Assembly: GCF_964355755.1 (NCBI RefSeq)
Contig: NC_092677.1
Coordinates: 5,788,101-5,852,100 of the forward strand
Origin: Antedon mediterranea
Taxonomy: Eukaryota; Animalia; Echinodermata
DNA: 64,000 nucleotides
Reading direction: 5' to 3'
In this document: in pieces, positions 3,252 through 53,881 of the stretch
Position numbering within the stretch: position 1 is the stretch's first letter
Layout of the letters: every line of letters begins with the position of its first letter
Program-made: the position numbers and the translations under genes
The notes under the pieces: model-generated
What the model saw: the letters and a program-made list of their open reading frames with translations, nothing else
What the model was told of the DNA's origin: nothing
Databases searched by the model: none

Positions 3252-6200
3252 TTTTCATTTCATTTCATAATAACATTTATTTCCTTCATAATATACAAAA
3301 TAAATAATATAATACACAAAATTCATGACGAGAAGAAAGATAGTTAAAACAATACAATTTTTTTTTTTCTCATCTTTAACATGAATAAAACAATATTATG
3401 AAGGAGGCACAATTTCTAAAAAGCAAAAGCTTGTGTTGAAAGTGCCTGAACAAAACAAAAAGTAACTAAAATCAAATTAGTAAATAATAGTAAATGGTAT
3501 ATAGGAATAAAGTAATTACCATAACGGAATATGAAAACAATAAAAAACTGATTCCTAGAATATAACTAGTTAATTAATTTCCTTTTGTATTAGATATTGT
3601 TTAGTGTTAAAGACGAAGCTATGTTTGTTTGCAGAAGTTGTAATTTTGTTAGGAAGTGAGTTCCATATCTTGGGTCCAGTAAATCTAATATTATGTTGAA
3701 AAGAAGTCTTTTTATGTTTAGGAATATGAAGGTTATTGAGGATTCTTGTGGAATAGCCGTGAAATTCATAATTGGGAGAAAACATATCGCGTAAATGAGA
3801 TGGAAGAAGAGCATTTTGGCTTTTGTAAATAAATAAACATTGTTGGAAAATATTAATATCTGTTAATTTTAATAATTTGAGAGAACGAAATAAAGGATCT
3901 GTACTAGTTCTAGGTGAAACATTCGAAATTATTCGAATGATTTTCTTTTGTAGTATTTGAAGTTTATTTAAATTAGATGGGAATGTGTTACACCAAACGA
4001 TATTGCAATATAAAAGATATGGCAAAACAAGGGAGCAGTAGAGTGTTCGGAGAATATGATGTGGAAGAAAAGATGCCAGTCTACAAATTATACCAATATT
4101 TTTTGAGATTTTGTTTTCTGTCTCAATAACATGGGGTTTCCATGTCAGACGACTATCAATGGATACACCCAAAAATTTTGCATGATTGACCATGGGGAGA
4201 ACAGAACCATTTAGTTTAATTTGCAATGGACCTAATTTAATCGGCATCGTACTACTTCTAAACAAAACATAGCTGCACTTTTTTAGATTTACAGAAAGGC
4301 TGTTTGCCAGAAACCATTCGGATACATTAATTAAACTTGTATTTACAGTGTTAAATAACGACTCTAAGTGTCGATTTTTACAGATTAGTGTTGTGTCATC
4401 TGCATATAAAAAGTAAGATAAAGATACTGACGAATTGTAAATATCATTCACATATAAAAGAAACAGAAGAGGACCTAGTAATGAACCTTGTGGTACTCCA
4501 CAGGTAATAGGCAAATAGTCAGATTGGGAATCACAAAACTTGGTACATTGGTAGCGGTTAGATAAATAGCTCTTAAATAAATTGAGAGGAACACCGCGAA
4601 TACCATAGTGATACAGTTTTGAAAGAAGAATGGGATGGTTAATGGTATCGAATGCTTTCGATAGATCGACAAAAACACCAATTGCAAACTCATCATTTTC
4701 AAATGCATCTATTATTTCATTGGACAAATCAATTAAGGCCATTGCGGTATCAAAATGTTTGCGAAATCCAAATTGCTTATTGAATACAATATTATTTTTT
4801 TCCATAAAGGCATAGGTTCTATTATAGATAATTCTTTCTAATATTTTAGAAAATAGCGAAAGGACTGAGATCGGTCGGTAATTAGATAAAGTGTCCTTTT
4901 TTCCTGCTTTAAAGATGGGAGTAACTCTTGCCAATTTCAATTTATTTGGAAAAACTCCTTTTGTTAAAGACAGATTAAATATGTGACATAGAGGTTTAAC
5001 CAAAAGGGAAATTGATTGTTTAATAACTTTTGGACTGAATTCATCAAGTCCTTGCGCTTTATTAGTTTTAAAACACTTGACAATATCTATAATTTCTGTA
5101 TCAGACACTGGACACATAAATAAAGAGTTTAAAGTAGGTAAGGGCAAATACGTTTTAAAATCAGATTGATCGGTTGGCAATTTTTTTGAAAGAGTTGGTC
5201 CAATTTCGACAAAAAACTTATTGAATTCATTTGCGATTTGAGACGGGTCTTCAATGGATTCACCATTATTGCCTGTTAGAACAACTTTCGTATTCAAATT
5301 CGGAGACCTTTTAATCAAGGAGTTAATTACGCGCCAAGTACCTTTAATATCATGTTGACATTGAGTGAATCTGTTTTGATAGTATTCGGTTTTAACACGT
5401 TTAATAAGTAAATTTAAGGTATTACGGAATTTAGTGTATTTTATTTTATTATGATTGGTAGGATTATTTAGGTATTTAGCATATAACTTGTGTTTATATT
5501 TAGTAGATTGCAACAGACCATTTGACATCCAAGGTTTTAATTTTGTGTTTTTTTTACTTTGCGTAGTCATTGGAAAATGTTTATTATATAAAAGTTTTAA
5601 TTTAGTTTCAAAAGTATTATAAGCTTGATTAGGTTCTTGCAATAAGTTCACATCGTTCCATGTTATTACGCTAAGCTCTCGTTTAAATTGTTCGATGTTA
5701 TTTTCATTAATTTTCCTAAAAGGTTTATTTGGAGGTCTACTGACTGCTTGATTATTTTTGTATGTTAAGGTAGATATAGAAAAAACAGGTAGGTGATCGG
5801 AAATATCGCAATAGAGCTGACCACTAGCGAGGTGTAAATCAGGCTGGTTGGTTAATATGTTATCAATAAGAGTAGCACTATTTGATGTTATCCTAGTAGG
5901 TCTAAGTATTAGCGGTAAATAAAAGTTGCTAAAAAGAGTGTTTACAAAATTGTTAGTTGTGGTTTCATAAGTATATTGCAAAATATCTATATTGAAATCA
6001 CCCAACAGATATACCAGCTTATTTTCAGTTGAAAGAGTATGAAGTAGGTTATCTAGGATATCATTGAATGCATTGATATTCAAAGACGGAGCACGATAGA
6101 TTGTTCCCACGATGATATTTTTCCCATGTATCTGTTCTATTTCAATAAATATCGATTCACATATTGATTCATCTGTTGTTAAATCATTACGGACAGTAAC

Positions 6201-6898
6201 TGATACATTGTTTCGTACGTACAGGGCTACGCCACCACCCGCCTTAGATTTCCTATTTCTAGAAAAAATATTATAACCCGGCATATCTGTTAGGGGATTA
6301 TTTAAAACGTTTTAAAGAATCCATCTTGCCCAAGAGACTACGTGTATTAAAATGGATAGTAGACAAAATATTTTTATCATTGTTATGCTTAGAGAAATTC
6401 TCTGAGAATGTTTCTGGATCAAAATAATTAGATTCATTTAAACTAGCATAAACTTGAGAATGTGGATCAACATTTTCGTTAATATTCATGTTCTCGTATG
6501 CCACAAAGGGGTTAAATTTCACATCAGTTGTAGGGTTGGATTGGCACATTAATTATAGGTATCATAGATAATTTAAACATTAGGTAAAAGTTAACAATAA
6601 TATAATAAAATAAAAAACTAAATATAACAATAATTAAACATAAAACAATTCTGTTTAGTGCTGCCGTATTACTAATACATAGGTAGCGTAAGCGTTGCAC
6701 TCCCCGTGTATAAAACGGAGAATAATTCATTAGGTATGCAACCGGGTATGCAAAGGTATAATTTGCATAATGGTACGTAGCGGACATGCTTGGAATTTAA
6801 ACAAGCAAAGCCAGGTTAAGTATACTGACATTACAAAATGAAAGAAGGCAGAGAAAAAGAAAAAGAAACCATTCATATCCCAGTTCCTCAAAACACCG
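3252..6898 (-). mobile_element. 5'-truncated CR1/L2-group LINE
   Basis: Contains an APE+RT ORF. The 3' UTR ends in AATAAA and a short (TGAAA)n tail near 3252-3280 on the minus strand. Confidence 0.85.
3570..6284 (-). CDS. LINE ORF2: apurinic endonuclease plus reverse transcriptase, N-terminus disrupted
   Basis: 904 aa with GGGVALY, YRAP, GDFN, TLIDNI, SDHLPV (APE) and NYRPISVL, QFGFR, DLSKAFD, GVPQGSLLGP, YADD, FLGV (RT). The true N-terminus (HFNTRSL) is in the out-of-frame ORF 6298..6549, and the intervening ETW motif is missing. Confidence 0.92.
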   Translation of the reverse strand: MPGYNIFSRNRKSKAGGGVALYVRNNVSVTVRNDLTTDESICESIFIEIEQIHGKNIIVGTIYRAPSLNINAFNDILDNLLHTLSTENKLVYLLGDFNIDILQYTYETTTNNFVNTLFSNFYLPLILRPTRITSNSATLIDNILTNQPDLHLASGQLYCDISDHLPVFSISTLTYKNNQAVSRPPNKPFRKINENNIEQFKRELSVITWNDVNLLQEPNQAYNTFETKLKLLYNKHFPMTTQSKKNTKLKPWMSNGLLQSTKYKHKLYAKYLNNPTNHNKIKYTKFRNTLNLLIKRVKTEYYQNRFTQCQHDIKGTWRVINSLIKRSPNLNTKVVLTGNNGESIEDPSQIANEFNKFFVEIGPTLSKKLPTDQSDFKTYLPLPTLNSLFMCPVSDTEIIDIVKCFKTNKAQGLDEFSPKVIKQSISLLVKPLCHIFNLSLTKGVFPNKLKLARVTPIFKAGKKDTLSNYRPISVLSLFSKILERIIYNRTYAFMEKNNIVFNKQFGFRKHFDTAMALIDLSNEIIDAFENDEFAIGVFVDLSKAFDTINHPILLSKLYHYGIRGVPLNLFKSYLSNRYQCTKFCDSQSDYLPITCGVPQGSLLGPLLFLLYVNDIYNSSVSLSYFLYADDTTLICKNRHLESLFNTVNTSLINVSEWFLANSLSVNLKKCSYVLFRSSTMPIKLGPLQIKLNGSVLPMVNHAKFLGVSIDSRLTWKPHVIETENKISKNIGIICRLASFLPHHILRTLYCSLVLPYLLYCNIVWCNTFPSNLNKLQILQKKIIRIISNVSPRTSTDPLFRSLKLLKLTDINIFQQCLFIYKSQNALLPSHLRDMFSPNYEFHGYSTRILNNLHIPKHKKTSFQHNIRFTGPKIWNSLPNKITTSANKHSFVFNTKQYLIQKEIN

Positions 6899-16100: not shown

Positions 16101-16745
16101 ACACAATTTGTTCATCTATCAACTAAAAGTACCGTAGGCCTATATCTATATATTACGTTAATATACATTACTAATAAACAAAGTTAGTAACAATTAATAA
16201 TTAACAGAATGTATTTCAGTTTGTTGAATTTAGGACATTATGATTTTATATTGAATTATATATATATTTTAAATTAATAAATACGGTAAACTAGTAATGT
16301 GATCCTAACAATGATGGTATACGTTTTTCAGAATTTAACGCCTAGGCCTACTTATTAAAATTATTCTTTTGAATTGATGAGCCTACCCAAACTATAGGTT
16401 AACATCAACGAACAACTTGTAATACTAGTATTGTTTCTTTAGTAAATTGTCTGTGATCTGATTGAAGACAGGTCTACACAACAGTATCTTAGATGTAAAA
16501 CACCAACAAATAAATTGAAATCATTATTTTTTATTTAGATAAAACGAATAAGAACAATTCATTGTGAGTATCGAAATCCTCGCTACCAAGAACTAAAAGT
16601 GTCTGCGCTTCCTGCCATTTACAAAGAGCTCAACAAAGTTACTAAAGTAGATAACGGTGCTAGGCCCACGACGACGACAAGAAAGGAACAAGTCAACACG
16701 GATTCGAATGTGGCCAAAAGCATTTATGAAAATATTTCAGAATAA
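10119..16745 (+). CDS. Gene 1: apparently intact IgSF type-I receptor with 5 Ig-like domains, TM, and ITAM plus ITIM tail
   Basis: Exons: SP 10119-10167 (MVLFQATLIFVIHSVV), V 10675-10998, C 11822-12133, V-like 12677-13012, C2 13980-14255, short Ig 14941-15177, TM 15870-15982, tail 16539-16745 (...YQELKVSALPAIYKEL...SIYENISE*). All are GT-AG, phase-compatible and stop-free. A probable non-coding exon donor lies near 9249. Confidence 0.85.
11613..11740 (-). repeat. Helentron/DINE-1-like short interspersed repeat (other copies ~31470-31568, 39335-39425, 40478-40548, 45090-45205, 56338-56445, 60516-61285)
   Basis: Shared layout: ACAAGGCCA..AGTCGCGTG, (GACC/GACA)n microsatellite, ATAGTGA.CTATAGAGTCGCG...CGCGACTAA terminal hairpin. 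The family assignment is inferred from this layout. Confidence 0.65.
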
Positions 16746-19084
16746 GAAAAAACACTAATCTTGTAACTAAGAGATTCTATTTTTATTTCCTGATGAAAGC
16801 AAAAAATGATGACACGTATACCAGCATACGTGTCCCTAGTTTTACAAAATCAAAATCTTTAATTATTGCACCTACTTGTGTTGAAATATTTTGTTAACAA
16901 ATGTATTTAAATTAATAATGCAATCGATATGAGTGGATGGAGGCCACATTGACTTCAGTGAACATTATGTCGGAAAACAACTCCAATAATATTAACAAAA
17001 TCAACTGCCCTTAAGATGTAACCTATAATTTATTACAAAATATTTCTTATTATAACTATAACTATTATTATTATAACTATAATAATAACTACAATAGTAA
17101 TGACAATAATAACTATTGTAATAACAACAATTTTAAATGTAAATATGCATATGTTTGTTTGATGTTGTATGTTTAAGCGGATATTAGCCCTTGATGGCAT
17201 TTGCAGCAATAAAGAAATTGAATTGAACAAGTAAATACAATTGAAAAAAAAAAATTCAAATTAAATTCCCCCTATGTGCTAGGCCTACTGGGTGAGTTAT
17301 ATGGATTTGTTTCCCCTTCCTGCAAACTTGTCTATTTTTGTAATATGTATTGTTTTTTGCATATTTGGCAATAAAAAATAATAATTTAAATTTGATTAGA
17401 CCCGGCTGTATACATAATTTAATGTATGATAAATCAAACGTTCGTTTATTAAATACAGTTAATCAACAACCTATAATTAGATTCCTACTATTCAAAAGGA
17501 GGTAGCTTCACAACACAATGGAGAAAACGCTTTTTGTATAGAATTTTAACTGTGTGTTGATAATAGTTAATTTTCCATTTAAATAAGAACTTGTAAATAG
17601 AAAAAAAAATACATATTTTTTTACGATTTACCTTTCAATAATCTTAAGCAATTTTAATATTCAGTCGTCGTCAGTAGTCTTGACGTAATTTAAAATGTTC
17701 CACTTGCTATATATAGTATGTGTATCTTGATAATAATTCTTATATGTATATATTGTTTTTTTATCTATATATTTATATACTCTTTTATCATCTTCTGAGA
17801 CGGAGTGACCGGCCTGAGGGTCAAAGTTTTATTTTAAACTGTGGTCATTCAATGCCATCTTGGACTATGTATTTTTGTATTTTTATGGCTAATAAAGAAA
17901 TGAAAAATAAAAAAGTGCGCTCAATCTCTATTGTAATATAACTAACTTGAATTATTGTGTCATGTGTTAAATAAAATAACATTAGTAATCTGTGCATTTT
18001 ATTTATATATTTTAAAGAAAAAAGTAATTAACCGAATAGTTGACAAACAACTCGGTCATACGGATTCGGATGGTGACGAACGTACTCGTGTGAAAAGGGG
18101 CTTAGTGGCATAACGACGTACACATGCGGTAAAGTGCAAATGACTCATTGAAAAAAAAACCATCAGAAAATAAACAATCATACATAATAATAAAAGAGGT
18201 AGCAACTAAATATGCCAGGTCGCAAAATACTGGGCGGCAAATGTAAGTGGCAATGTTTGTTGAGAAGAGGTAACGGAGTAGACCCGTGATAAGTAAATAC
18301 ATCACATTTGAATGTAAATGTCACGGAGCTATGATATTATGCGATTAACAGATAATGGTCAATAAAAAATAATACGCAGACTATATTTTTAGCGTACCTT
18401 GGATGGAAGCAACATTTTAAAAAAACAGTGATTTTCATTGGATGTCCAAATAATGACCTAAACGTGGTCAGTGTTGTAATGAACAGTTTTGCAATTTTAA
18501 TATTCAAAACCAGAAGTGTAGCTTCGGTATATATATATTTTTATGACGGATGATGAAACTGAAATATAAACTGATAAACAGCAGAATAATCTGTATTTAT
18601 TAAAAAAAGCTAAGGTTGTGAAGAAAGGGATTCAACGAGTAAATCGTAAGTGTGTATTTGCAATCAGGATTTTTTTTTATAAATGATAAAATTATATATT
18701 TATGTACTACTGTTTTCATGGTAAAGACTAAACTTAGAATAACTTATTTAAAAGCAATATTTATTAATAAAAGATTTATATAATATAATATGTACATCTT
18801 ATATACATTTATATTGTACCATACTTATATTATTTGATTTAATATTATTGTAATGAAAGTTATTAGTTATAAGAATTCTTTTATTGTCACGAATATTTGG
18901 TCTTTGATCAATGAATCATTCCTATCATATTCCTCTCTCTTTCCAAAAAAATATATTGAACAAATAAATCTAAATGAAATATGAGAGTTAAACAAGTATT
19001 CTCAGTAGTTGGTCATAGCATTGGAAATGACAGTATTTAAAATGCTAACACAATGAAGGAAATTTTTTCTTTTCTACTACATAG

Positions 19085-21178
19085 ATGTCAACATTTGTAT
19101 TTCTGTACCTACTGTTTCTGATTGAACACGCCATCGGTAAGTTTTTTTCAGGTGTACAACAGAGAGAATCCTGCTCGGCATAGCCTCTTGCATATCTAAT
19201 ATATATTATTACATTATCTAATCTAAAACTAAACAACTAATGGTTGTTTGTTGAAGATGCGTTAATAAACAAACTCTTGCTCTAACATCACGTAATAGCT
19301 CAATAAATATACATTCTGATCAGAACGTCATAATTTCTTATTGTTATTTAAGATTTATAACATTAATTTAACCGTGTTATAATTGGGGTAATTGTATTTA
19401 TAAAGAATACTAATGCATTATATACAAATTATAAGAAATTGTATTTCTGTTATTGGCTGACCAGTTTCGAAAATGATATTTTCTCGACATTGGTATATGA
19501 CAAGAGTGTTTAACTCAGTAAATAAAGAGGAGGAGGGGAGGAGAATAGAGGGAAGGGAAGAGTGGGAGAGGGGAGAGAGAGAGAGAGAGAGGGTGGAGAT
19601 GATAAGGACATGGAGAGCGTGCATGAATTCGTTGAAAACCTGAACTTGTGCAAAAACATGATATCTGTACTCATTAATTGTTTCCAAATTAGCATTCTAA
19701 ATTGCTAATGTGGTGTTTTGTATCCAAGATTATTCTATTTATATTTTAGCATCAGATGTTATAATATCTGTAATTGAAGGTGAATCAATTACAATTCCTG
19801 CTGGAGGTGGTATTCGCAAGGACGAAATACATTCGATAAGTTGGTTTAAAGGTAAAAACATTCGTCATCAAGTTATCGTTAATTCTGTTAATCGTCAATC
19901 TGGCAGATTTTCGATTGTTAATGCCTATGGAGATTTGATGATACAAAATGTAAGCAGAGAGGATGCAGGATACTACACTGTTCAAGTTGTTAAAAGTGGC
20001 GAGGAAAATCAAGAGACCATGACATATCCCCTGGATGTATATTGTAAGTTTTAAAATATGTTTAATATTAGTATATCTTTAATTTAGATATTCTAAAATT
20101 AGATAAGTATACGTTTTTTGAATATTTACACTCAAATCAAATTTCAATTAAATGAAAACTTTCACAGGAGGATTAGAAAATATATAAGTTAAATTAATGT
20201 TTTAGTTATTTGCAGAATACTATTCACAAGGTTATTACAATGACATTTCTTCTTATTCTTATAAGAACATTCTTTGTTCAGTTTTTAAAATACCCATATT
20301 TTGTAACATACATTTATATTCAATTTGAGTTAGCAAAGATACCGTATGAATTCACAGTTAATGCATGCCAATGTCATCACAAAAGACATAAAGAGTGGCA
20401 CCCCATAACGTAGGTCGGCTAAACTAGTTGTGCCCTAGACCGTACTAGCCGTTTGTTCCGTGTACAATAACGCAGTACACCCTTTGGAAAAGAGAAGGGG
20501 ATCGTCTCTCGGTGTACTGCCCAATATACCAACAGCAGGACCTCTACAGACTTAGTGGGCTATACTTGGTGTATAACACTAAAAAAACAACACAAAAGAT
20601 AAAACAAGTAGGCTTATTACTATATGTCCTTCTTTTCTATCGCAGATATGGATTTTCCAACTCTTACATCGAACACTAAAAATAATAACGATAGCAAGTA
20701 TATTATATTTCACTGTCAATGGAGTGAAATATATCCCAAAATGAAACCGAACGTTACGTGGATACAAAATGGAAATTTACTTGACCCCAACACAATTAAA
20801 TACAAAGGAAGTAATACTATAATAAATAGGGTTGTTTATCAAGTGTCTGAAAACGACTATGGAAACTATGCTTGTCGTGTCACTGTTGAAACAATGGCAG
20901 GAAATATGAACTAGAAGAGCAGTGTCGAAGAAATTACGCAAAGTAAGTACAGTATTTACAATCAGGCATTCTTACATAGAAACCGTGTTTTTTATTATTA
21001 TTGTCAATAGGAATTTGAAAGGTTTTATCTACACTAACTCTTTTTAAATAGTAAACATTGATTTTTTTCAGTTGCTCTGGATTTAACCTCACCAACGGGC
21101 ATATTGACTACAGTTTTAATATTAGCTGTTATCGCTTCGTTCGCCATTGGTTATTTTGTAGTAGCAGGTTTTCTTTAT
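19085..21178 (+). pseudogene. Gene 2: SP-V-C-TM unit with an in-frame stop in the C exon and no tail exon of its own
   Basis: SP 19085-19136 (MSTFVFLYLLFLIEHAI), V 19750-20043, C 20646-20942 with TAG at 20912-20914 where the paralog has AAG, TM 21072-21178. It is followed directly by the gene 3 SP exon. Confidence 0.8.
20385..20580 (+). repeat. Degenerate SINE-like fragment in the V-C intron (paralogous copy ~22930-23140)
   Basis: Two diverged copies of a GC-richer segment containing GCACATTAAAGAACGCAGTACACTCTTTGAA, reminiscent of conserved SINE central domains. The family is not certain. Confidence 0.4.
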
Positions 21179-21387
21179 GTAAGTATAAAGATAAATTATG
21201 TGAATTGATTAGAACGGCCAGAATATATTTGCTCCCCACCCATAGAATTCGCCCCTGGATATGTGACGCGATTAATTATTGTAACAAGTATTCCCAGTCA
21301 ATAGTTGATCATAGCATTGAGAATGACAAGCAGTATTTAAAATGTTATCAAAATAAAGGAAATGTTTTCTTTTCTACTACATAGATT

Positions 21388-24300
21388 ATGTCAACATTTG
21401 TGTTTCTGTCCGTACTGTTTCTTATTGAAAATGCAATCGGTAAGTTTTGTTCAGGTGTAAAACAGAGAGAATCCTGCTCGGCATAGTCTCTTGTACATCT
21501 AATATTATTATTACAAAAATACGAATAATGGTTGCTTGGCGAAGATGCGTAAGAAACAAACTATTGCTCTAACTTCACGTAGTAGCTAGCTCAATAAAGA
21601 AATAATTATTCCCATCCTTACTTGAAATAATGCAAATTTAAAAATCTAAGATGTCTTAAATCAAACCGCGTAAAATAACCGCGTTATAATTATATATTAA
21701 TAATATTATATTTATAAAGAATACTAATACATGTACAAATTATATGTTATAAAAATTATGTTATATTGGCTGACCAGTTCCGAAAAAGAGACCATTTTTA
21801 CATAAATATTTTTCTGTTTACTTAAAACAAAAGATTTGGTTACTTCAGTGTGCATAGCTATGTAATTTCTATAGGAGGTGGAGAAGGGAAGAGTGGGCGG
21901 GGATGGGAGGGAGGAGGGGGAGAACGTGCGTGCGAGTGGCAACTGACTGCGAAAGGAAAATTGTATGCAACACAATACCTTATTGTTCATTTAATCATGG
22001 ATCCTTAATCCATGATTTAATGCACATGAGTGCGGCGCGTACATATCGGTGACCATCAAAATACCGAAATTAGTATTTACTGTTCTATGATGATCTATTG
22101 TTCATCATCCGGGTTGTCGTGGCGGACTACATAACACAATGTCCTGGTCTGGTAGTTTGTATTAGTCATTAATTGTTTCTGAATTAGCACTCTAAATTGC
22201 TAATGTGGTGTTTTTATCTCAGATTATTCTATCTATATTTTAGCAATACTATCGATAATTGAAGGTGAAACAGTCACAATTGCTGTTAGAAGTGGTATTC
22301 GCAATGACAAAATACATACGATAAATTGGTTCAAAGGCGAAGAAATAAGTGTAAATCTATTTATCCTTAATTCTGAAGCAAGTAAATCTGGCAGGTTTTC
22401 AATAGTTAATGCCTATGGAGATTTGAGGATACAAAATGTAAGCAGAGAGGATGCAGGGTACTACACAGTTCAAGTTGTTGAAAGTGGCGAGGTATATGTT
22501 GAGACCATGACATATCACCTGAATGTATATTGTAAGCTTTAAAAAATGTTTAATAATTTTTAATTTAGATATTCGAAAATAAGATCATTATACGTGTTTT
22601 TCAACAATCAAATTTCAATTGAAATGAAAACTTTCACTTAAGGATTAAAACAATTAGAAGTTATATTAATATTTTGCTATTTGCAGCATACTATTCACAA
22701 GGTTATTAAAATGATATTTCGTCTTATTCTTATAAGAACATTCCTGTAAATACGATTTATGTGGGAAATATGTGGGAAATTCTTTGCATATCATTTCGTA
22801 TATGGTCTAAATGTTTTGTAAAATTATTTTTTGCAATAACTTAGAAATATTTGTGTAAACATGTACTGTATTTATATTCAATTTTAGTTAGCAAAGATAT
22901 AGATTCACCAATTCTCTGCAATGTGATCACAAAGGACATGAAGAGCGGCATTTTACGTAGTCGGCTAAACTGGTTATGCGCTAAACCGTTGGTCCCATGT
23001 GCAACATGGCCAATGTGCACATTAAAGAACGCAGTACACTCTTTGAACAAGATTAAGGGATCGTCTCCAGATGTGCTGCCAAATTTACCACCAGCAGGAC
23101 CTCTACGGTCTTAGTGAGCTATCCTGGGTGTATAACACTAAAAAAGAAACCAACATCACAAAAGATAAAACAAGTACGCTTATTACTATAATTATGTCCT
23201 TCTTTTCTATCGCAGATACGGATTTTCCAACTCTTACATCGAACATTAAAGATAATACCGATAGCAAGTATATCATATTTTACTGTCAATGGAGTAACAT
23301 ATATCCCATAATGAAACCGAATGTTACGTTGATACATAATGGAAATACACTTGACACCAACACAATCAAATACAAAGGAAGTAATAATGGAGTAAATAGG
23401 GTTGTTTATCAAGTGTCTGAAAACGATTATGGAAACTATGCTTGTCGTGTCACTGTTGAAACATCAGTTGGAATTATGAGCAAGACGAGCAATGTCGAAG
23501 AAATTACGCAAAGTAAGTATTTAAACCATGTTTTTTTTTAAATTATTATTGTGAATAGGAATTTGAAAAGTTTTATTTACACTAAGTCTTCTTACATAGT
23601 AAACATTGTTCTTTTTTCAGGTGCTCTGGATTCAATTACCTCACCAACGGGCATATCGACTACAGTTTTAATATTAGCTGTTGAAACATCAGTTGGCATT
23701 ATGAGCAAGACGAGCAATGTCGAAGAAATTACGCAAAGTAAGTGTTTACAATCAGGCATTTGTTACATAGAAACCATGTTTTTTTTTATTATAATTGTGA
23801 ATAGGAATTTGAAAGGTTTTATTTTCATTAACTCTTTTTACATAGTAAACATTGTTTTTTTTGCAGGTGCTCTGGATTCAACCTCATCAACGGGCATATC
23901 GACTACAGTTTTAATATTAGCTGTCATCGCTTCATTCGCCATTGGTTCTTTCCTGACTTTTGTAGCAGCAGGGTTTCTTTATGCAAGTATAGAGATAAAT
24001 TATGTGAATTGATTAAAACGGCCAGAATTTATTTAGTAACATCAAAATTTGAAAAATACCTCTATGGAAGTACTACATACATATCAAAACAAAAAAGATA
24101 CAGAAACAACAAAATAAAAAGACACCGTGTTTGATAAACTGGCACTACTCATGCTTCTAGATATCGGTGGCGAATCCAGGATTTTGAAAATGGCGGCGGG
24201 GGGGGGGGGGGGGGGTTTTGCAGGGTCTAAAAGTAGTGAAATGAAGTTCTTAACTTAATTTGATGTACTATCCTATGCATTACACATTGTGAAAGCTAGA

Positions 24301-25059
24301 GGTGGCCCGGGCCGGGAGGCTGGGTAGGCAGCTCCACACCCCACCCCTTGAACCCCTCCTGGATAAGTGACGCGATGAATTATTGTAACACAATACATTT
24401 ACTTTAAAGCACAATGCAGATTATTACAATAAGATCTAAAGAGGCAACATATAACATCAGTAGAACATTTCATATTGGGATTGAGCGAGTTGCTTCTAAA
24501 AAACACGTTTCCTCATCACTGCGATCACACGTGAGAATATGAGTACCAAGACTTCTCAAATAATTCATCGATTGCAAACTCTTTACAACAAACTGACGTA
24601 CTAGTTGCTGGAGTATAGAAACTGTTAGAGTTATAAAAGCAAATCAAGATCCTTAGCGATAAATTAATATGATATAATATGCCAACTGTTTGTACTAAGA
24701 AACTTGATTTGGCCGATTTTTGTTGTGAACTTTACAATATTTAGTTAAAAGTAATAAGGTTGCAATGCAAATTGTTATTGAAATTACAACCTAAAAATAC
24801 GATTTGATTAGTTAACAATCCAATGTTAAAATCAGTTGTTATCGCTTCAATCGATCTTAGACTAAGTTGCTAATTATGATTGTGAAACAATGGTATTAAA
24901 TAAAATCGACAGCAATAAGAAACTTACTTTCACTCAAATGATACATTATTGTTTTTACAGAAAAGACGATTAGGTCTGAAAGAAAACAAGTCTAAAGATA
25001 ATGACCTCCAATATCAAGACATGCAATATGCGTCACCCCTTCTCATTACCAGGAGCTAA
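21388..25059 (+). CDS. Gene 3: SP-V-C-(chimeric stalk)-TM-tail receptor with a GC donor after TM and a frameshifted tail
   Basis: SP 21388-21439, V 22244-22531, C 23216-23512, chimeric exon 23621-23737, TM 23867-23982 (donor GCAAGT), tail 24961-25059 KRRLGLKENKSKDNDLQYQDMQYASPLLITRS*. Confidence 0.72.
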
Positions 25060-25977
25060 AACCCAGTAAGTAAATACACGACAAGAAGGCGGAAAAATGT
25101 CAAAACGTATGCAATGACAAGAAGACAAGATGAAGATGTACCTGAACAAGTTTTAGATTAAGTTCTCATTTACCTATAGATCTTTAATAGTAGGGGCTGA
25201 TATGAAAAGAGTTGTGAAAACAAAAACGATTCTATATACTAAAAAGATATATGAACGTTCCTCCTAAAATTAATAATTGTAATTTATATGAACCCCGCTA
25301 CTAGCCTACCTACATTTTTAAAGTTGATATAGTGATTTTAATTATAAAAGATGCATTAATTATTTTATGTAAATAAGGTACAATAAAAATAATAATTTAA
25401 ACAGCGCAAACTAAAACTAGGCCTAATATATGTTAACAATTGTTTCCACTAGTCAAATTTTCGAATCGAAAGCGTCATCTTATACGCATGGGTGTATTGC
25501 AAAGCGAAAATTGGTGCTAAACCAATCACGAGTTCAGGAAATTAGTTATGACGCTTCAGTGAGCACTTATGCGTATCTTAAATCTCAGTAGCAGACACGC
25601 AATGGAAATGAAAATCGGCAAAAAAAAAAGAAAAAAATAAATATTATAAAACTATTTATAGGCTATAAATACAAAAGCGAGTTTATAGTATCTTCTTCTT
25701 TTTTTTATGTATAGACAGTTTAGATTTAATGGGGCTAAGAGAACTTGTGAATTTCATTCTGATATTATACTAAGATACTAATAATATTTGACTGTTGTAA
25801 TGAGGACTTGCTTTAGTATAAGTGACTTCTGTGATATTCCTTTAACGTTTTGCTTTAAAGATATATTTAAATAAAAATTAAAAAGATGAATAAAATAAAA
25901 TTTTGAACACGAAATTTTGCAGTTCACATGTTCACCTTGCAACTTTCTGGTGTCAACTAAGTTGGCCGTTAGTGGCT

Positions 25978-26933
25978 ATAGTCATTTTAGTTTGTTTGTT
26001 TATTTTAGGAACGGACCGCGCGTGTGAAGGTACAGTAGTTAAAAAATAAAAATTATACTGCAAATTAATAAAGATCAATACAAATTAAATATACGCCATA
26101 AAGAATCGGAAGATATTGTGAGGAATAGTATTAAAAAATTACATAGGGAGATCTGATGATGATAAGACATTTTATTTAAAATCGAGTGAAATCCCGATAG
26201 CCGAGTTTTATTGAATAAGCTGGCAGGAATAACTGTAGGCTATCTGTGTCCCGTTAGGACCGGGATGTCTGCCCAAGTTGCAAGCCGCCTAAAACGTCTT
26301 CCTTCTTGGGCCGAAACAGCCCACTCTGTCGCGGAAGTTAGTTTCAAAAGACGTTTAAATTAAATAATGTATTGATTATTAGGATGGCATTTATTTGAAT
26401 AAACGCCTCCCCAAAAAAACATCACTTTGAATAATAATCGCCCCTTCCCCCAACCCAACTTTCTAATAAACGCCCATCCACAATTATACACACAATATTG
26501 TATTATATTTATAATAACACAATTATACTGTTTGTAGTAGAATTCATCGCACTGTTATCTACAATTTACCAAGCATGTCCTTCTTTTTCACCACTTTTCA
26601 TATCTATTATAGGATTTTATTTAACTATAAATGTTACCATTATTATTTAAAAAAGAATTAAACATATCCCTCGAATGAGCACCTCCCTCAAATGAACTCT
26701 ACCTCCCCACCTCCGCCCTATAAGGGTCCTACTAAACAATAAACACTATACTTTAAAATGCTATTAATCATCTAAGACACTGTGAAAAAGAGTAGGTTTA
26801 GTTTTACGAATGTCAAGCATTTTAAATAATGGTAACCGACAGAGAAAACGTACAAGGAGAACGTCCTTTTTAAACGAGTCATTATCATTCCAAGAACCAT
26901 CGTCTACACTTCCTAGAGTACTTCCCTCTAGTA
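25978..26933 (+). repeat. About 0.9-kb non-coding segment duplicated at ~48139-49034
   Basis: Colinear similarity by eye (e.g. GTGTGAAGGT.CAGTAGTTAAA, TGTGTCCCGTTAGGACCG.GATGTCTGCCC, GAACCATCGTCTACACTTCCTAGAG). The copies lie upstream of genes 4 and 8. Confidence 0.8.
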
Positions 26934-28274
26934 TATAAAAATACATTAAATAAAAAGTTAAAAAGCCGGAAGCGCGGCTATATTATTATGTTTTATCAAC
27001 GTGTTTATGTTTTCTAAAATAATTGAAACTGAAATATAACGTAACAATATGCAGAATACACGTTGTGATACTGTATCACAACGTGTATTCTGCATATTGT
27101 CGTTGTCATGAATAAACCGGTAAGTTTTTATTATCTTTTTTATTTTATTTATCAATATTACTATTAAATTAACAATTGTTAGAGGAATTCTAACGTAAGA
27201 GAAGAGTTGTTTTTCTCTGGTCGTTTTCTGTTTAGACCAAATTAACAAAGACAAAGTATTATAATTATACTGAAAGATAAAAGATAATAATCTCCCATCT
27301 GAAATATATATAATATTTTTCTACTATGTCTAGCTACTATGAGGACGATCAAAGCACATTGATCGAAACGTCTAGAAACTCAACAGTTCTTTTCAAAACT
27401 GATATACGTGGTGTATCGCAAACTTTATATCAACATTTGATTTCGCCATGCAAACCTTCAAACAATATTATAAAAATATTATTAATAAGCGTGAAGATAA
27501 AAGACTTTCACATAGTTAAGTGCAGTTGCCATTCGCCGTAGCGGATCTATTATTTTGAATTAGTAAACTTCGTAAACTTATTAGCAAAATCATTGTTAGC
27601 ATTTGTAGCTTTCCCGTCTCCCTTAGATCTGCCTGTGATTTCTAATATAATGAGAATGATACAAATACAGTGCAATGCAAGTATGCGAGTACTATTTTCA
27701 TTTTCTAAGATAGATTGAACCATATGCGACTTGTTTGTGATCAAACAATGTAACATGAACAAGATTGACTTATAAAAAGAGAGAAATATTCACAAGATCA
27801 CTTCAATTCAATATCTAATTCATTTTAGTTGGTGACTTAAACATGACTTAAGTTGGCCTGGCTTCTATACCACAATATAAAACAACAAATACATGCTAAC
27901 CTTCTATAAAATGGGTATTGTCAGTATAGCACAATAACAGATCAAAATACAATTGCAAATTGATTTAATTAATTAAAATAATTGAATAATTGAATACCAT
28001 TAAAAAGTAGTGTAAAAATACTGATAGTAGTGATGATGTGATAATGACTCATTGAAAAAAAAAACCTCAGAAAATAAACATATCATAAATAATAATGAAT
28101 CGGTAGCAACTAAATATGCCAGGTTGCAAAATACTGGGTGGCAAATGAAGGTGGCAATTTTTGTTGAGAAGAGGGCGGCTAAGAATTCCCAGTAGTTGGT
28201 CATAGCATTGGAAATGACAGTATTTAAAATGTTAAAAAAATGAATGAAATGTTTTTTTTTCTACTACATAGATT

Positions 28275-30239
28275 ATGTCAACATTTGTGTTTCTGTCTCT
28301 ACTGTTTCTTATTGAAAACACAATCGGTAAGTTTTTTTCAGGTGTACAACGGAAAGACCATTGTTCTATAACTATTTGTTGTGTTTACTTTAATAAAAAA
28401 AAAATTCAGTAAATAAAGATTTGGTTACTTCAGTGTACATATCTATATATCAGGGAAGGAAGAGGGGAGAGGGAAGGGAGAGGGGGAGAGGGGGAGAAGG
28501 AAGGGAGTGGGGCGGGAAGAGTGGGGAGAGGGGAGGAGAAGAATGAGAAAAAGGGGAAGAGAAGAATGAGAAAAGGAGGAGTAGGAGAGCGTTCGTGCGG
28601 GTGGCAACTGAATAAAACAAGGAAATTGTTATGCAGCACAATACATTCTTCAAACTAGGCATAATAATAATTGTGTTCGTCTTATTGAATGTACATAATA
28701 GGAATGCGGCTCTTATATATCGATGACCATAGAAATACCGAAAACTGTTCTATGATATATTGTTAATCATCCAGGTTCTAGATAAATATTCATAACACAA
28801 TTATATTCATAACGTGAACTTATTTACAAATATTAACTTATTCTTAATCATAATTCGTTCAAACCAGAACTTGATATCTATAGCCATTAATTGTTTCCAA
28901 TTTAGCATTCTATATTGCTAATTCTATTTATATTTTAGCCTCAGATGTTATACTATCTGTAGTAGAAGGTAATTCAATCACAATTCCTGGAGGTGGTATT
29001 CGCATTGACAAGATACATGCAGTAAGTTGGTTCAAAGGTGAAAAAGCATATCAATATCAACAAGGTATCGTTCATTCTAACAATCGTCAATCTGGCAGAT
29101 TTTCGATCGTTAATTCCTATGGAGATTTGATGATACAGAATGTAAGTAGAGATGATGCAGGGTACTACACTGTTCAAGTTATTGAAAGTGGCGAGGAACT
29201 TAGCGAGACCAACACATATCACCTGGATGTATATTGTAAGAATAAAAAAATGTTTAATAATATTAGATCTTTAATTTAGATATTCTAAAATTAGATAAGT
29301 ACGGTATATGTTTTTTCAACATTTACAATACCAATCATATTTCAATAAATGAAAACATTCACTTAAGGATTGAAACAAATTAATATTACATTGATAATTC
29401 TTATTATTTCTTCCTATTCTTATAAGAACATTCGTGTTCTGTTTTTAAAATACTTACATTTTGTGTAACACTATGTTTTGTAATAACTTACATACATTCA
29501 TGTCAACATGTAAAACATTTATATATTAGATCTTAGTTAGCAGAGATATATATTTACCGATTCTCTGACAGTTAATGCATGCAATGTGATCACAAAAGAC
29601 ATATAGAGAGAGGAATAGCGCAGTCCGCTAATTGAGGCAACATTTAACATCAGTAGAATATTTCATATTGAGATTGAGCGAGTTGCTTCTAAAAACTATC
29701 ACACATGAGAATACGAGTACCACGACCTCTCAAATAAATTCATTCTCGATTGCAAACTCGTTACAAACAAATACCGTACTAGTTGCTGGAGTATAGGAAC
29801 TATGAGACTTATAAAAGCAAACATTTAATATGATATAATATGCCAACTGTTTGTACTAAGAAATTTGATTTGGCCGATTTTTGTTGTGAACTTTACAATA
29901 TTTAGTTAAATGTAATAAGATTGCAATGCAAATTGTTATTGGAATTACAACCTAAAAATACGATTTGATTAGTTTAACAATCCAATGTCAAAATCAGTTG
30001 TTATCGCTTCAATCGATCTTAGACTAAATTGCTAATTATGATTGTGAAACAATGGTATTAAATAAAATCGACAGCAATAAGAAACTTACTTTCACTCAAA
30101 TAATACATTATTGTTTTTGCAGAAAAGACGAGTAGGTCTGAAAGAAAACAAGTCTAAAGATAATGAACTTCAATATCAAGACATGCAATATGCGTCACCT
30201 CCTTCTCATTACCAGGAACTAAAACCCAGTAAGAAATAG
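28275..30239 (+). CDS. Gene 4: SP-V-tail unit lacking C and TM exons; predicted secreted single-V protein (or pseudogene)
   Basis: SP 28275-28326, V 28939-29235, tail exon 30123-30239 (KRRVGLKENKSKDNELQYQDMQYASPPSHYQELKPSKK*). A deletion junction at ~29632 fuses the V-C intron to the post-TM intron. The V-to-tail splice creates T|AA, a stop codon. Confidence 0.7.
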
Positions 30240-33071: not shown

Positions 33072-36000
33072 ATGGCGAGAATTGTATGCATATTTCTTTC
33101 ATTACTGATTTTATTCGAAAGCGCTATAGGTAAGGGTTGTCAGCGATAAAAATCGCTTAACAAATGTGCACCTCCTCAAAACGTTGATTGATAAAATCAA
33201 TACTTTTGCATTATGATTTTGATATAGTATACACTTGTGTGTACAAGACTATTTTTTTAAATAAAATAATAGGATAATATTTTGTATTTATAATGTAAAT
33301 TTCTTTACTGGACACCAGATGATGTGCATTTATTATAAACTATAATGCAATGGTTTTTATGCATTTAGGTATGTTTAGTAATCCATATTTTAAAAAGGGT
33401 GCTTCCACAGACTACTTTGTGATTGTACGGTAGTATGTTTTTTTTTATGTAAACTATTTAATTATTATTTTATTATTATTTCATTTTTGCTGTGATTCAT
33501 AAATACAGATTAGTTTATAATATTAATAATAATAATAATAAATAATTTATATCTAAGCCTCGGATCGTATAAAAGAACTGTCAATAATTGAAGATGAACA
33601 AATCACAATCTATGCTGGAGGTGGCATTCCCATTGATAAAATACACGCGGTAATTTGGTTCAGAGGTAAAGAAGTATATGGAGAAAGACAAATTGTTAAC
33701 TCTGTTAGTCAACTTCAAAATGGAAAATTTTCAATCGGAAAAGTGTATGGGGATTTGATCATACAATATGTTGATATAACAGATGAAGGATATTACACAG
33801 TTCAGGTTAATGACGAGGAAACGGCTCGGACCACAACGTATCACCTGGATGTGTATTGTGAGTTATTTCCTAACCATTTCTATACATTAATGTAATAGCT
33901 TTTATAGAAGATGAACTTTTTAGTTTATTTATGCTAGTACAGTGATACTTTATAAAATAATTATATGAAATGAAAGTAATGCGATTTTCTATTCAGTACA
34001 CTCTGATAACATAATGAACTAGGTAGTGTTATTCATATTTTTTACTTTGAATATCTTCTGGTCTAAGTAAGCATGTATTTTAAAACTAACTCTTCCCAGT
34101 ATATTTAAATAATACTATCACTATCATCTTTACAGATATGGATTCTCCAAATTTCATAGCATCAATCGATAATAGCAATAGCCACTATGCATTCTACTGT
34201 ATATGGGGTAACATATATCCCGAAATGGAACCGAAAGTAACATGGACACTTAATGGAAATTTATTAAATACATCAACGCCTAAATACAGTGTAACAGATG
34301 AAGGGAAACGTTGGAACAAACTGGTTATTTTTGAAAATATGTCTGAGAATGATTTTGGGAACTACTCTTGTCGTATTACTGTAAACCTGGATGAGGGTAC
34401 TATGGAAAAGACAAGCAATTTAGAAGAAATATGGCAAGCATCTAGTTCTGGTAAGTAAAACATAACATTTGGTTCTAAAGCCTTGTCTACACTATCAAAC
34501 TTTATGGGACACCAAAATATAATGTGCCCATATCTGGACATGATTATGTCACCTCACTACCATAGTAGTATTTTTTGTCAAATTAGTTTGTGTGCAGATT
34601 AGACAGAGCTGGAACCTAGTTCAGATCTATACCGTATATCATAGCAATAACAAAAGCGTAAGCGCAGTAGCGTCCTGTAAAGATATAGAGCCTAAGTGTA
34701 TTATGTTGTTTTGAATTAATACTAGATACTTTCAACGGTTCATTTAGATTCATCGTAATTAGGAAAGTTTCGTGATGAGTCATATTATAAGTAAGGAAAT
34801 GGTGATAGAAAGTAAGCACAGAATTGAACTGTCGCCACTAAAAAGTTATATTTATGTAAATATTTGTTTCATTTCAGCTGCTCCATCTATAGAGACGTTT
34901 TCGGTAATCGAAGGAGACCGAACCGTAATTCCAGCTAGAGTCGATGTGCCCATAAACACAATACAATCAATAACTTGGTACAAATTTAAATCACCACAAA
35001 CAAACTATACAATTGTTAGTTTAACAAATCGAACCAATGGCCGCTTCTCAATTGATGGAACTGGCAAAAACTACGGTGATTTGATCATACAACATGCTGA
35101 TAGAGAAGATGCGCGTTATTACACATGTCAGATTTTACAAAATAGAAATTCTAGAGAGAAGACCATTACGTATTATTTAGATTTATACTGTAAGTTTAGT
35201 ATATCCTAGTGTATAGATATTTTGGCGATTAGACCTAACGTTATAATATTATTATAAAAACGTTTGAAGCATGGATAAAAAGATCTCATGTAGCTGACTC
35301 TATCACTTATGATATAATAATATTATACACATAATTATGAAATGAGGTAAATAATTCCATAAGAGGAAAAACTACTTACGTTTGATAAATAACTATATAA
35401 ATAAAACCCAATACAATTTCCAACAATAATACAACACACAAGATCGCCTACTCTTAAATTCAGAATGAGTTGTGTTATTCCATTTTTATTTCAGATCTAG
35501 TTTCTCCAACTCTCACAACATTCACTGAAAACAGTCCTACTGGTAACAAATATGGTTTCTACTGCATATGGTTTAAAATGAACCCAGAGATGGAGCCGTA
35601 CGTAGCATGGCTACATAATGGACATATATTAAAAACCTCAACGACTAAGTACAGTGTGATAAAGGACGAAGAAAGGAGCATACAAACACTCATTATTCTG
35701 GAAATGACTGAAAATGATGTTGGAGAATATGCGTGTCGTATTACGATTGAAACAAAATTAGGAATGCCTAATATGAGTAAAACAAGCACCATCGAATACG
35801 TTACGATAAGTAAGTAGGCCAACCCCTTTTTACTACCCTTGTCACACTTCTTTCTGTTACCTGCAATAACTTTAATATCTAAAACTAACTAATTTTCTTA
35901 GCATTTTGTTCTGTTTCAGGTGCGTTGGATTCACCTTCGTCAACAGGCCTATCAAGTACATTAATAGGAGGCTTAGCTACAGTGACAGTTGTTTGTATAC

Positions 36001-36716
36001 TTGTCTCTATCCTTACTTGTGTAATAGCACGTGTTATGTATGTAAGTATTTCAAATTATACAGGAAATAAAAACACGGAGATGAATTAAATTCAACAAAT
36101 GTACTGCATAGTAGAACTTTGACTTTGAATGATAATGTTAATGATGACGATGACTATGACACAATGATGACGATGACGGTGACTATGACACGATGGTGAT
36201 GATGATGATTACGATGATAATAATGGTGCATAATGACCATCACGTGCAACTGGAACTTACATTTTTGTCTCATTTAGTATTACGTTTGCTTGGCCTAAGC
36301 ATTACGTTTTAGATTGATTGGTATTATATTGCTCGTATCATTTTGTGACTTGAAAGAAAATACATTAGTCATTCAGTCGGTTCTGTTTATGATTTGAGAG
36401 TTATATAATAACTTAATGACACTGAATAAAAACAACAGAAAGTCTAAACTTTTACTTTCAATCAATATTAAAACACAGGAATTATTTAAAAAAATTTATA
36501 TTCTTTTGATAGGAAAGACGAGTAAAGCAAATTAATTCTAAACGTAAAAGTCCTCAATACCAAGACCTGCAATTTATGCCACGCCCTGACCAGTACCAAG
36601 AGCTTACTATAGATTCTAGAATACACGACGGTGTCACCAACAAAAATAAAACAGATAGAAAAATCTCGGAAACGAGTTCGAAGGTTAACGTTGTTTATGA
36701 AGACATACCTAATTAA
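33072..36716 (+). CDS. Gene 5: apparently intact IgSF receptor, V-C-V-C, TM, ITAM plus ITIM tail
   Basis: SP 33072-33129 (MARIVCIFLSLLILFESAI), V 33558-33857, C 34136-34450, V 34878-35189, C 35495-35809, TM 35920-36041, tail 36513-36716 (...YQDLQFMPRPDQYQEL...VVYEDIPN*). All are phase-compatible. A probable non-coding exon donor lies near 31985. Confidence 0.87.
36130..36225. repeat. Degenerate (GAT/GAC)n microsatellite in the gene 5 TM-tail intron
   Basis: GATGACGATGACTATGAC...GATGATGATGAT read directly. Confidence 0.8.
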
Positions 36717-38367: not shown

Positions 38368-39050
38368 ATGGCAACATATATGTTTTTGCTCTTTCTCATC
38401 CAACAGACGACAGGTAAGATATCATTGTAATAAAGTGAAGAAAATTGATGGGGTGGGGTTGTGAATTGTGTCAGTTTCGCCCCTCGGCCGAAAAAAGTGT
38501 TATTTGTCTAGTATAAAGATATGATACAAGGAATGAAAGTACCTGGAAGGATCTACTACCGTATTCGATATCGACACCGGTGGACCTTTTTGCAGAGTAA
38601 ATTGAAGTGGTGAACTACGATATATCAGTGAATTTTTGACAATATTATGTGTACAGGTATTTAAATATTAATTTCCCACATTGCTTCTGTTACCTACAGA
38701 AAAGAAGAGCATCAGTAGAAATTCATTCTAAACAAGATCTACAATACCAAGATGTGCAACTTTCTTCATTCCCCTCCGTGTACATCGATTCTAACATAGA
38801 CAACGGTGTTATCTATGCAAATACAGAGGCCGGCAATATGTCGGATAGGTGGCCGAAGGAAGACGGAGCCGGCAAAATGCTGGATGCGTGGCCCAAGGAT
38901 GACGTAAGCAGGAACATGGCGGATGAATTGCCAAAGGGCGGCGTTACGGTGAAATTTTCGGATGCGTGGCCAAAGAGCGGCGTTACGGTGAACATGTCGG
39001 ATGCGAGGCCGAATAAGGATGAACTCAATTATGAAGTTGTGAATTATTAG
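38368..39050 (+). pseudogene. Gene 6 relic: SP exon plus an intact tyrosine-motif tail exon, with all Ig and TM exons missing
   Basis: SP 38368-38413 (MATYMFLLFLIQQTT, gtaag). Tail 38700-39050 reads KRRASVEIHSKQDLQYQDVQLSSFPSVYIDS...VIYAN...LNYEVVNY*. Only 286 bp separate them and the phases are incompatible. Confidence 0.72.
38832..39026 (+). repeat. Coding 39-bp (13-aa) tandem repeat, 5 copies
   Basis: GNMSDRWPKEDGA / GKMLDAWPKDDVS / RNMADELPKGGVT / VKFSDAWPKSGVT / VNMSDARPNKDEL. Confidence 0.88.
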
Positions 39051-45539: not shown

Positions 45540-47125
45540 CTTAAAGGGCTACTGAAAGACACAAGCGAACTATGCTGTTTTCTAACTAATAGTGATATAT
45601 TATATTAAAAATAAAAGTAAACTTTTAATAATGCAAAAATTAACATTCTTAGACCGAATAATTTGTTTGTCTTATTTCGGAGAAAAGTTTTTTTTTATCT
45701 AAGTAGGAAGGTGTCGGCCAAAACATTAGTGTCGCAAACAGTACGGCAGTTAAAACAAAATCATTTGCATTGTAATTTAAATGATCACTAACTCAGAGTA
45801 GATTAGTAAACAATGGTGTACTTATTAACGGTAATGATACACTTTTACTTTCACTCCATATTGCATTATTGCTATTTTTCTTACAGAAAAGACGAATAAA
45901 AGAAATCCATATTCTTCTTTCTTATTCTGTCTTATTCTTTCTTATTTCTTCATTTCCATTCATCATACATATTCATAAACATACATAAAAAAGAAACAAA
46001 GAGAAAAAAAGAATGGAAAGGGGGAATCTCGAAAGCATAGATTTATAGAAGAAGAAGCTAACTTGCTTTTTACTTTAAATTAATACAGACTATAAAATAT
46101 AAACAATTTAAAAAAAGCTTTTTTTCCTTAAGCAATATCGTTTAAATAATGATTATAATTATACTCCAGGAATAATTGATTGTTTTTTTTAAATCATGCA
46201 ATTATGAAAAATGTAATAAAAAAGAAAACATATACATGTGACTAACTGTTACGTTGCTCCGGTTTCTACTGTAAAGCTCAGTCTACTTATTAAACTTTAT
46301 GTGACAAGAAAATGTGATGTGCCCATATATGGACATTATGATGTCATTTCACTACAATATTTGGGCATATCACTACTATATTATTTAGGAACTACATTTT
46401 AATCAAACTAGTTTGATAGTGTAGACAGAGCTTAAAACAAGCTAACGTGTATTAGAATGTTCGTCCCAACACATGCGTTTTGTATGGTGTCCCAGTGTGT
46501 GTATTCTGCAGAGTTTTGCTATGCATGTAAAACGGGTATTTGTTCTCACTTTAATGTCATACAAAGTACAATTTATGTTACTGGAGGGCAGCGCAAAAAG
46601 CCAAGACTGGTATATAAGGTATATAAAAATTACCGGAACATCAAAATAATTTGATTACCCCTTCCGGACCAGCAGAGACAAGAAAGACCGGGAAATCTGA
46701 AACTTAATTTGATGCCTCTCGGTATCCCAACATGCAACGGTACGACCGACCACCGCCCTCCGCGACACAACATTATCTTTTATTGTGCCTATGAAAAATG
46801 TTGTTATCTTCATATAAAAAGTGTATCTATAATAACATTAGGCCATTATGTGCTTAGAGAACCGTTGCTTTTTCAAGTTTAGTCTAGATTTCAATTGGTT
46901 GTGTATAATAATATGTACATAATTATAAATATTATAAAGATTATAAAGATGTTGATAGTTACTAATTATTAATATCATTTATCTAATAAGTGTCAATCTT
47001 TAAAACATTGCAATATTTGTATTATTACTTATATTTGGTTGATTGATATGGGAGTTTTAAACATTTCCAGTTCCGGTTATTTTTGTTTAGGCCTACCAAA
47101 TACGACATTAAAAAATTGTTCTTCT
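45540..47125 (+). pseudogene. Relic 3' end of a gene-8-like paralog (post-TM intron, truncated tail exon from 45887, 3' flank)
   Basis: TTCTTACAG|AAAAGACGAATAAAAGAAATCCAT matches the gene 8 tail start (61364) and then breaks off into unrelated sequence. The flanks are colinear with ~60285-62850. Confidence 0.7.
46275..46432. mobile_element. Short Harbinger-like MITE family (copies also ~34479-34610, 37735-37833, 39208-39332, 61858-62011)
   Basis: TIR approximately AGCTCTGTCTACACTATCAAACT, a shared internal GATGTGCCCATAT.TGGACAT segment, and TAA on both flanks of this copy. Confidence 0.7.
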
Positions 47126-53877: not shown

Positions 53878-53881
53878 GCCG

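Follow-up and report, generated by a model that had tools for sequence, protein, structure and literature searches.

Possible episodic diversifying selection on the predicted ligand face of V domains in three tandem receptor copies of the crinoid Antedon mediterranea

We analysed a 64-kb stretch of contig NC_092677.1 from the crinoid Antedon mediterranea (the window; GC content 33.6%) and identified a tandem cluster of immunoglobulin (Ig) superfamily genes on the + strand, in which each domain is encoded by its own exon. The genes encode receptors with a variable-type (V) and a C-type Ig domain, and some members have tails with an immunoreceptor tyrosine-based activation motif (ITAM). There are nine V exons in the window. 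Three genes, g2, g3 and g4, are recent copies of one another, and their V exons (V2, V3 and V4) are all open, in phase 1-1 and bounded by AG and GT. A preliminary description made from the letters of the window had placed these V exons, their reading frames and several peptides in the cluster; all are present at the positions listed below (TM, transmembrane), and the flanking introns can be aligned, as it had stated.

19085..19136, +, g2 leader exon, encoding the signal peptide
19750..20043, +, g2 V exon of V-set type, free of Cys, with a single N-glycosylation sequon
19818..19841, +, g2 patch 1, BC loop and C strand before Trp, not above neutral
19854..19898, +, g2 patch 2, CC' loop, C' strand and C'-D loop, strongest nonsynonymous excess
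19899..19994, +, g2 D-E-F core, purifying selection
20001..20021, +, g2 patch 3, FG loop and start of G
20646..20942, +, g2 C/I-type Ig exon, TAG stop at 20912-20914 in place of the AAG of g3, where protein P0001 ends
21072..21178, +, g2 TM exon, 3' of the stop
21388..21439, +, g3 leader exon
22244..22531, +, g3 V exon (patches 22303-22326, 22339-22386 and 22489-22509; core 22387-22482)
23216..23512, +, g3 C/I-type Ig exon
23621..23737, +, g3 additional chimeric exon, start of the TM exon fused to the end of the C exon, included in protein P0002
23867..23982, +, g3 TM exon, GC donor
24961..25059, +, g3 cytoplasmic exon, 1-nt deletion relative to g4 with loss of the second tyrosine of the ITAM-like motif
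28275..28326, +, g4 leader exon
28939..29235, +, g4 V exon (patches 29004-29027, 29040-29090 and 29193-29213; core 29091-29186)
29595..29640, +, g4 deletion junction, C and TM exons gone
30123..30239, +, g4 cytoplasmic exon, ITAM-like motif

The copies had been presented as a recent triplicate. They are recent but not equally intact: each has lost either the membrane anchor or an intact ITAM tail, as would be expected of decoys or of decaying copies, which the preliminary description overlooked. The nonsense codon of g2 precedes its TM exon, no cytoplasmic exon was identified between that TM exon and the start of g3, and the product is predicted to be a soluble V-C protein. In g4, splicing of the V exon to the tail exon creates a TAA codon, in agreement with the 121-aa database protein P0003, which ends at the end of the V exon; a soluble V-only product is predicted. 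The g3 product (database protein P0002) is predicted to be membrane-bound with a broken ITAM. A local tandem duplication at 23453-23924 gave g3 its extra in-frame exon and a longer stalk. One contig from sequencing run X8 of another study (that it is RNA is a guess, and none of the runs listed for the locus is recorded as RNA) splices V3 to the g3 C exon with 2 + 4 differences, and a second begins at the boundary of the g3 tail exon. Insertions and deletions among the three V exons (at least four) are all in frame, as had been described, compared with 12 of 56 in non-coding DNA. Thus, we infer that the V frames were under selection while the copies diverged.

The pattern of change was evaluated over 93 gap-free codons of V2, V3 and V4, in which parsimony places about 59 nonsynonymous and about 19 synonymous changes. 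Non-coding DNA served as the neutral reference; its 462 columns contain 125 changes, a rate of 0.27 per site. Permutation of the window variance shows that nonsynonymous changes are clustered (p=0.0013-0.0022, window size 8-25 codons); synonymous changes are not clustered by the same permutation (p=0.67-0.72). Nonsynonymous changes per site (pN) reach 0.66-0.70 from the CC' loop to the C'-D loop (0.66 with the gap placement that minimizes change), about 2.5x the neutral rate, where the corresponding synonymous value (pS) is 0.22-0.28. The D-E-F core has pN 0.07 and pS 0.32 (5 changes in 71 nonsynonymous sites and 8 in 25 synonymous sites), below neutral at P=0.0001. The ratio of nonsynonymous to synonymous changes is 5:8 in the core and 24:3 in the C' patch (Fisher p=0.002, or p=0.006 with a conservative 21:3). 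The framework described as nearly invariant is so only in D-E-F. The A-B segment, with pN 0.26 against 0.27, changes at the neutral rate; pN of the G segment is 0.14. Three patches had been described as strongly differing. The C' patch is as described, the FG patch (pN 0.51-0.64) is marginal and owes its value mostly to two adjacent codons, and the BC/C patch before Trp (pN 0.36, pS 0.42, P=0.27) does not exceed neutral. With the three pooled, pN/pS is 1.85, compared with 0.48 for the rest of the exon (Fisher p=0.003).

An AlphaFold model predicts a V-type sandwich of 8 strands (pLDDT 85), with CEACAM6-N (TM-score 0.80) and CD84 as the best fold matches. The A'GFCC'/BED sandwich, the C-strand Trp and the D-x-G-x-Y motif expected of the V-set are present, and matches to PF07686 score 34.8-37.9 bits (cut-off 26). 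There is no B-F disulfide, as V2, V3 and V4 contain 0 Cys; absence of this bond is common to the N domains of the CD2, SLAM and CEACAM families. We mapped 10 GFCC' interface residues of CEACAM1, taken from a publication (10.1101/2020.07.14.199711) rather than selected from the present data, onto the crinoid domains via an HMMER alignment. Six of the 10 equivalent positions vary and carry 12-15 nonsynonymous changes (p=0.005-0.029 by permutation, with two alignments and two FG registers considered), and enrichment is also found with 15 positions (p<0.001-0.016). On the exposed ABED face, 16 positions, assigned from the alternation of residues along the strands rather than from computed accessibility, have 7 nonsynonymous changes, a lower density than on GFCC' (p=0.015-0.026). 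The ABED side bears an invariant glycosylation sequon. The centre of the GFCC' face is also invariant, at the positions equal to F29, Y34 and Q89. The preliminary description had left the choice between a GFCC' ligand face and a surface like the complementarity-determining regions (CDRs) of antibodies. The enrichment favours the former, and with the CDR1-equivalent BC loop/C patch at the neutral rate the CDR-like option is not supported; the variable surface is, on the model, a side face, the one that CD2/CEACAM-type receptors use, and not antibody-type CDR tips. A rearranging antigen receptor with CDR1-3, which would have separate V and J segments and diversity at the BC, C'C'' and FG tip loops, was also considered and rejected, since a single exon encodes the whole of V including the G strand and the BC patch is at the neutral rate. 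Prediction of a V3 homodimer, for which the alignment was not used, scored 0.00, which speaks neither for nor against a dimer. We regard it as solid that the D-E-F core is under purifying selection and that changes are concentrated on the predicted binding face; an above-neutral excess is likely in the C' region and uncertain in FG.

Whether the excess reflects positive selection was evaluated with site models, all of them our own Python implementations rather than codeml, with naive empirical Bayes posteriors. The comparison proposed in the preliminary description, M7 vs M8 on the three sequences, is nominally significant (p=0.0003-0.0006 with the Goldman-Yang, GY, and 0.0001 with the Muse-Gaut, MG, formulation), and M1a/M2a, M7/M8 and M8a/M8 all give p=0.004 or lower in 7 of 7 model and column sets. 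The result is unreliable here: it depends on three codons, on the alignment and on the treatment of multiple hits, and non-coding DNA often passes too. The top class has an implausible dN/dS of 35-149 at 4-8% of sites and consists of three codons, each with two or three changed positions. M1a/M2a is significant on the three best-cost alignments if multiple hits are not modelled (p=0.012-0.016), on the protein alignment with double and triple mutations freely allowed (p=0.021), and on columns that omit the indel patch (p=0.004; 0.043 with multi-hit). With all nine V exons the support is weak; M7/M8 gives p=0.013 and M8a/M8 p=0.042, and the top sites are again in BC/C, CC'/C' and FG. Outside the site models, the nonsynonymous excess persists under a scan-corrected Poisson null in which dN/dS is 1 at every codon (p=0.001-0.017, 12- and 15-codon windows). 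For g3 and g4, the V exons are more divergent than non-coding DNA (53/284 vs 176/1587, p=0.0008), and the V peak exceeds every non-coding 45-nt window (17 vs a maximum of 13; 0%). Such pairwise windows are cleaner than the three-way non-coding alignment, where a 45-nt window with 29 changes, from a misaligned stretch, surpasses the 25-27 of the V patch.

Several results weigh against positive selection. The M0 estimate is not different from 1, whole-exon dN/dS is 0.82-1.23 (about 1), and the patch nonsynonymous and synonymous changes compared alone give p=0.07. Pairwise comparisons of the leader and TM exons, and of C5b with C7c, were out of frame and are excluded from the rates given here. 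V and non-coding divergence do not differ significantly for g2-g3 (p=0.30) or g2-g4 (p=0.50), and the V-peak 45-nt window is matched by 4.1% and 2.1% of non-coding windows, respectively, before scan correction. Removal of the three codons reduces the likelihood ratio to 0, minimum-change alignments with multi-hit give p=0.073-0.088, and M1a/M2a on all nine V exons gives p=0.33. When flanking non-coding DNA of the same locus was read as codons, M1a/M2a gave p<0.05 in 4 of 6 readings. Positive selection on the triplicate V domains is therefore suggested rather than shown. Episodic diversifying selection on their predicted ligand face, with dN/dS above 1 on that face, seems to us about evenly balanced between true and false.

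The foremost alternative is that loops and an edge strand under little or no constraint (dN/dS about 1) have drifted in decaying copies, and that multi-base mutations and changes next to indels produced the peaks. We consider this quite possible and almost as good a fit, though we do not favour it. The false positives in the non-coding control and the dependence on three codons are what it predicts. Multi-nucleotide mutations bias such selection tests, according to 10.1101/165969, and runs of 3 or more adjacent mismatches do occur in the non-coding alignments (8 of 126 runs, g2-g3). On the other side, M1a/M2a with multiple hits free still gives p=0.02-0.04 in two of three treatments, and the synonymous rate of the C' patch (2.3-3.1 changes in about 11 sites) is not raised. 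No signal of positive selection was detected in the six V exons outside the triplicate (p=0.57-1.0), to which M1a fits, yet the same positions vary in them (rho=0.40, p=8e-5, n=92), as simple low constraint predicts. The lesions in all three copies fit decay, as does a C-exon dN/dS of 1.16-1.34 for g2-g3. An imperfect palindrome at 22341-22374 (13 of 16 pairs) is centred in the g3 C' patch, and the variant letters listed from other contigs reduce it to 9 of 16. It could be a source of templated multi-base changes, but it folds no better than shuffles (z=-0.3), 7% of stretches of 290 nt contain a similar palindrome, and another is present in the conserved core of V4. No reverse-complement template was found nearby for the larger mutation clusters; only the 3-nt cluster at g4 codon 48 has 8-9 nt reverse-complement matches, which is the chance level.

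The patches may instead have been imported by short gene-conversion tracts from distant paralogs or divergent haplotypes, which could itself be a diversifying mechanism. Conversion is probably active in the cluster. V5b (34878-35189) and V7b (58850-59148) are nearly identical over about 41 central codons, where they have 1-2 nonsynonymous differences and a single synonymous one against about 7 expected (P=0.007), whereas pS is about 0.2 at their ends; this central stretch is likely a conversion tract. Non-coding divergence among the copies also differs between blocks, from 0.06 to 0.22, and PMC8860441 describes conversion that shuffles primate CEACAM N domains. Contigs aligned to the window provide further variants, considered here for 40 listed of 799 rows. 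Among those listed, the g3 C' patch has 5, all nonsynonymous: S35N, V36A, N37K, F39V and L41V (V3 exon numbering). Five of 5 agrees with selection, but has a chance of 0.25 and comes from 40 of 799 rows. These variants occur in X5 (organism B) and in X1, where they are split over two further V3-like contigs at single-copy depth. With 1029 nt of identity over V4, X1 probably is the individual that was assembled and so not independent, and that individual likely carries additional V3-like sequences, either alleles or extra paralogs. Import into the patches nevertheless appears improbable, given that no donor was found within the window (best ungapped matches 27-29 of 45-48 nt) and that patch synonymous sites are no more divergent than those elsewhere.

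Polymorphic self-recognition molecules resembling Hydractinia Alr1/Alr2, in which the patches would set allele-specific homophilic binding, are compatible with selection but imply another ligand, and seem the least probable of these explanations. Tissue-fusion allorecognition is not known to us from crinoids; no search aimed at it was made. In favour of this reading, an X1 intron contig has 40 differences from the window over about 430 aligned letters (about 9%) and shares at least 9 listed variants with X5 and X6, but the X8 V3 allele differs at only 2 sites, and soluble products consisting of V alone or of V-C would be more readily explained as decoys. Alr genes, as described in PMC9546547, are likewise an invertebrate tandem Ig-superfamily cluster with Cys-less V domains, ITAM tails or tails with immunoreceptor tyrosine-based inhibition motifs (ITIMs), and expressed pseudogenes; unlike the crinoid genes, they have an Fn3-like domain and V domains mostly without Trp. 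Membership in the Alr family was rejected, because Pfam results for P0001 and P0002 include no Fn3 match and the V Trp is invariant in 13 of 13 crinoid V domains. The second crinoid domain has the canonical Cys pair.

Under the preferred explanation, selection on the predicted ligand face, the three copies would have arisen from a V-C-TM receptor with an ITAM-like tail, an organization retained by g1 and g5. Tails were compared with the consensus YxxL/I-x(6-9)-YxxL/I (as given in PMC9546547). The g1 and g5 tails (16539-16746 and 36513-36716) contain it, followed by a terminal ITIM-like tyrosine; it is broken in g3 and absent in g2, and the g4 tail exon is near-consensus, with M closing the first motif. 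After triplication of the V-C-TM gene, each copy would have lost its anchor or its tail. The D-E-F/ABED side of their V domains is held by purifying selection, and bouts of diversifying selection, acting over weak constraint, have likely pushed the CC', C' and FG side apart. By analogy with CEACAMs, the copies would serve as variant binders of a changing ligand, for example a microbial adhesin, or as decoys for it.

The crinoid system appears to work like the CEACAM paired receptors and decoys, whose N-domain binding surface is, according to PMC8860441, where positive selection and conversion are concentrated. The likeness to vertebrate CEACAM1/3/6 N domains lies in the Cys-free V domain (profile E=4.6e-8), in variable residues at positions equivalent to V39, G41, Q44, V96 and N97, and in a tandem cluster whose domains each have their own exon, with ITAM/ITIM-type tails, truncated forms and conversion. 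However, identity is only about 30%, the second domain is crinoid-specific, and we claim neither orthology nor membership in the CEACAM family. Outgroup crinoid V domains, unlike those of CEACAMs, retain the F-strand Cys, which indicates that complete Cys loss was recent and likely convergent with CEACAM. CEACAM tops the PDB lists, and CD84 scores about equally (Foldseek E=6.3e-7, compared with 5.3e-7 for CEACAM6). The CD2/SLAM proteins (CD84, CD48, 2B4) also combine V and C ectodomains with a V domain that lacks the B-F disulfide, but the crinoid tails have ITAM-like pairs and identity is 16-25%.

Homolog searches, one of which scored the best 7992 candidates, returned family members only from Antedon and Anneissia. 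P0001 is 100% identical to the V2 exon and is named CEACAM6-like protein (Antedon mediterranea) in its source. Other members are P0012 from Antedon and three Anneissia japonica proteins (XP_033107385, XP_033112119 and XP_033122033), which have 36-41% identity to V2 and the same V-then-C layout, and so belong to the same family. The Anneissia proteins differ in retaining the F-strand Cys and have automatic names only (fasciclin-2-like, lachesin-like and uncharacterized). In addition to the F-strand Cys, the V domains of P0012 and of 55900-56155 have cysteines in the BC loop and in the FG/G region, which suggests a non-canonical disulfide.

Echinoderm immunity has mostly been described via TLR, NLR, SRCR and Trf genes. 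We found no description of this cluster in the openly accessible literature on crinoid and invertebrate-deuterostome Ig/ITAM receptors and on CEACAM. If selection is confirmed, the cluster would be a candidate Ig/ITAM recognition locus that evolves in the manner of vertebrate CEACAMs, in the living echinoderm class that branched off earliest. Otherwise, the locus is a clear example of a three-sequence M7/M8 result undermined by a neutral control. More speculatively, and in our view unlikely, crinoids may have independently evolved CEACAM-like paired receptors, with ITAM V-C receptors accompanied by soluble or signalling-dead decoys. Balancing selection, driven by pathogens or by self/non-self recognition, would then act on the GFCC' face of their Cys-free V domains, and divergent haplotypes would be so old that different species share them.

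Elsewhere in the cluster, the g7 tail (61364-61564) has lost the second ITAM leucine, and the g6 tail is unrelated. An orphan degenerate tail exon at 45887-46000 is a homolog of the tail region of g7 (90% between 45809-45911 and 61284-61388). A remnant gene at 38368-39050 consists only of leader and tail exons, with about 290 nt between them; this is ectodomain-exon loss as in g4 but more extreme, and its tail has several tyrosines and short internal repeats. Repeats and mobile elements were also identified. A high-copy region at 25866-27800, with a summed contig depth in the tens of thousands, is inserted between g3 and g4, and part of it occurs again at 48123-49001. An intact 913-aa open reading frame (ORF) at 3570-6311 (-) has endonuclease and reverse transcriptase motifs and is presumably LINE-like. 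A GC-rich 5.3-kb element at 50571-55901, which we take to be DIRS-like, has inverted terminal repeats and overlapping long ORFs with reverse transcriptase and tyrosine-recombinase-like motifs, and adjoins the first g7 V exon on its 5' side.

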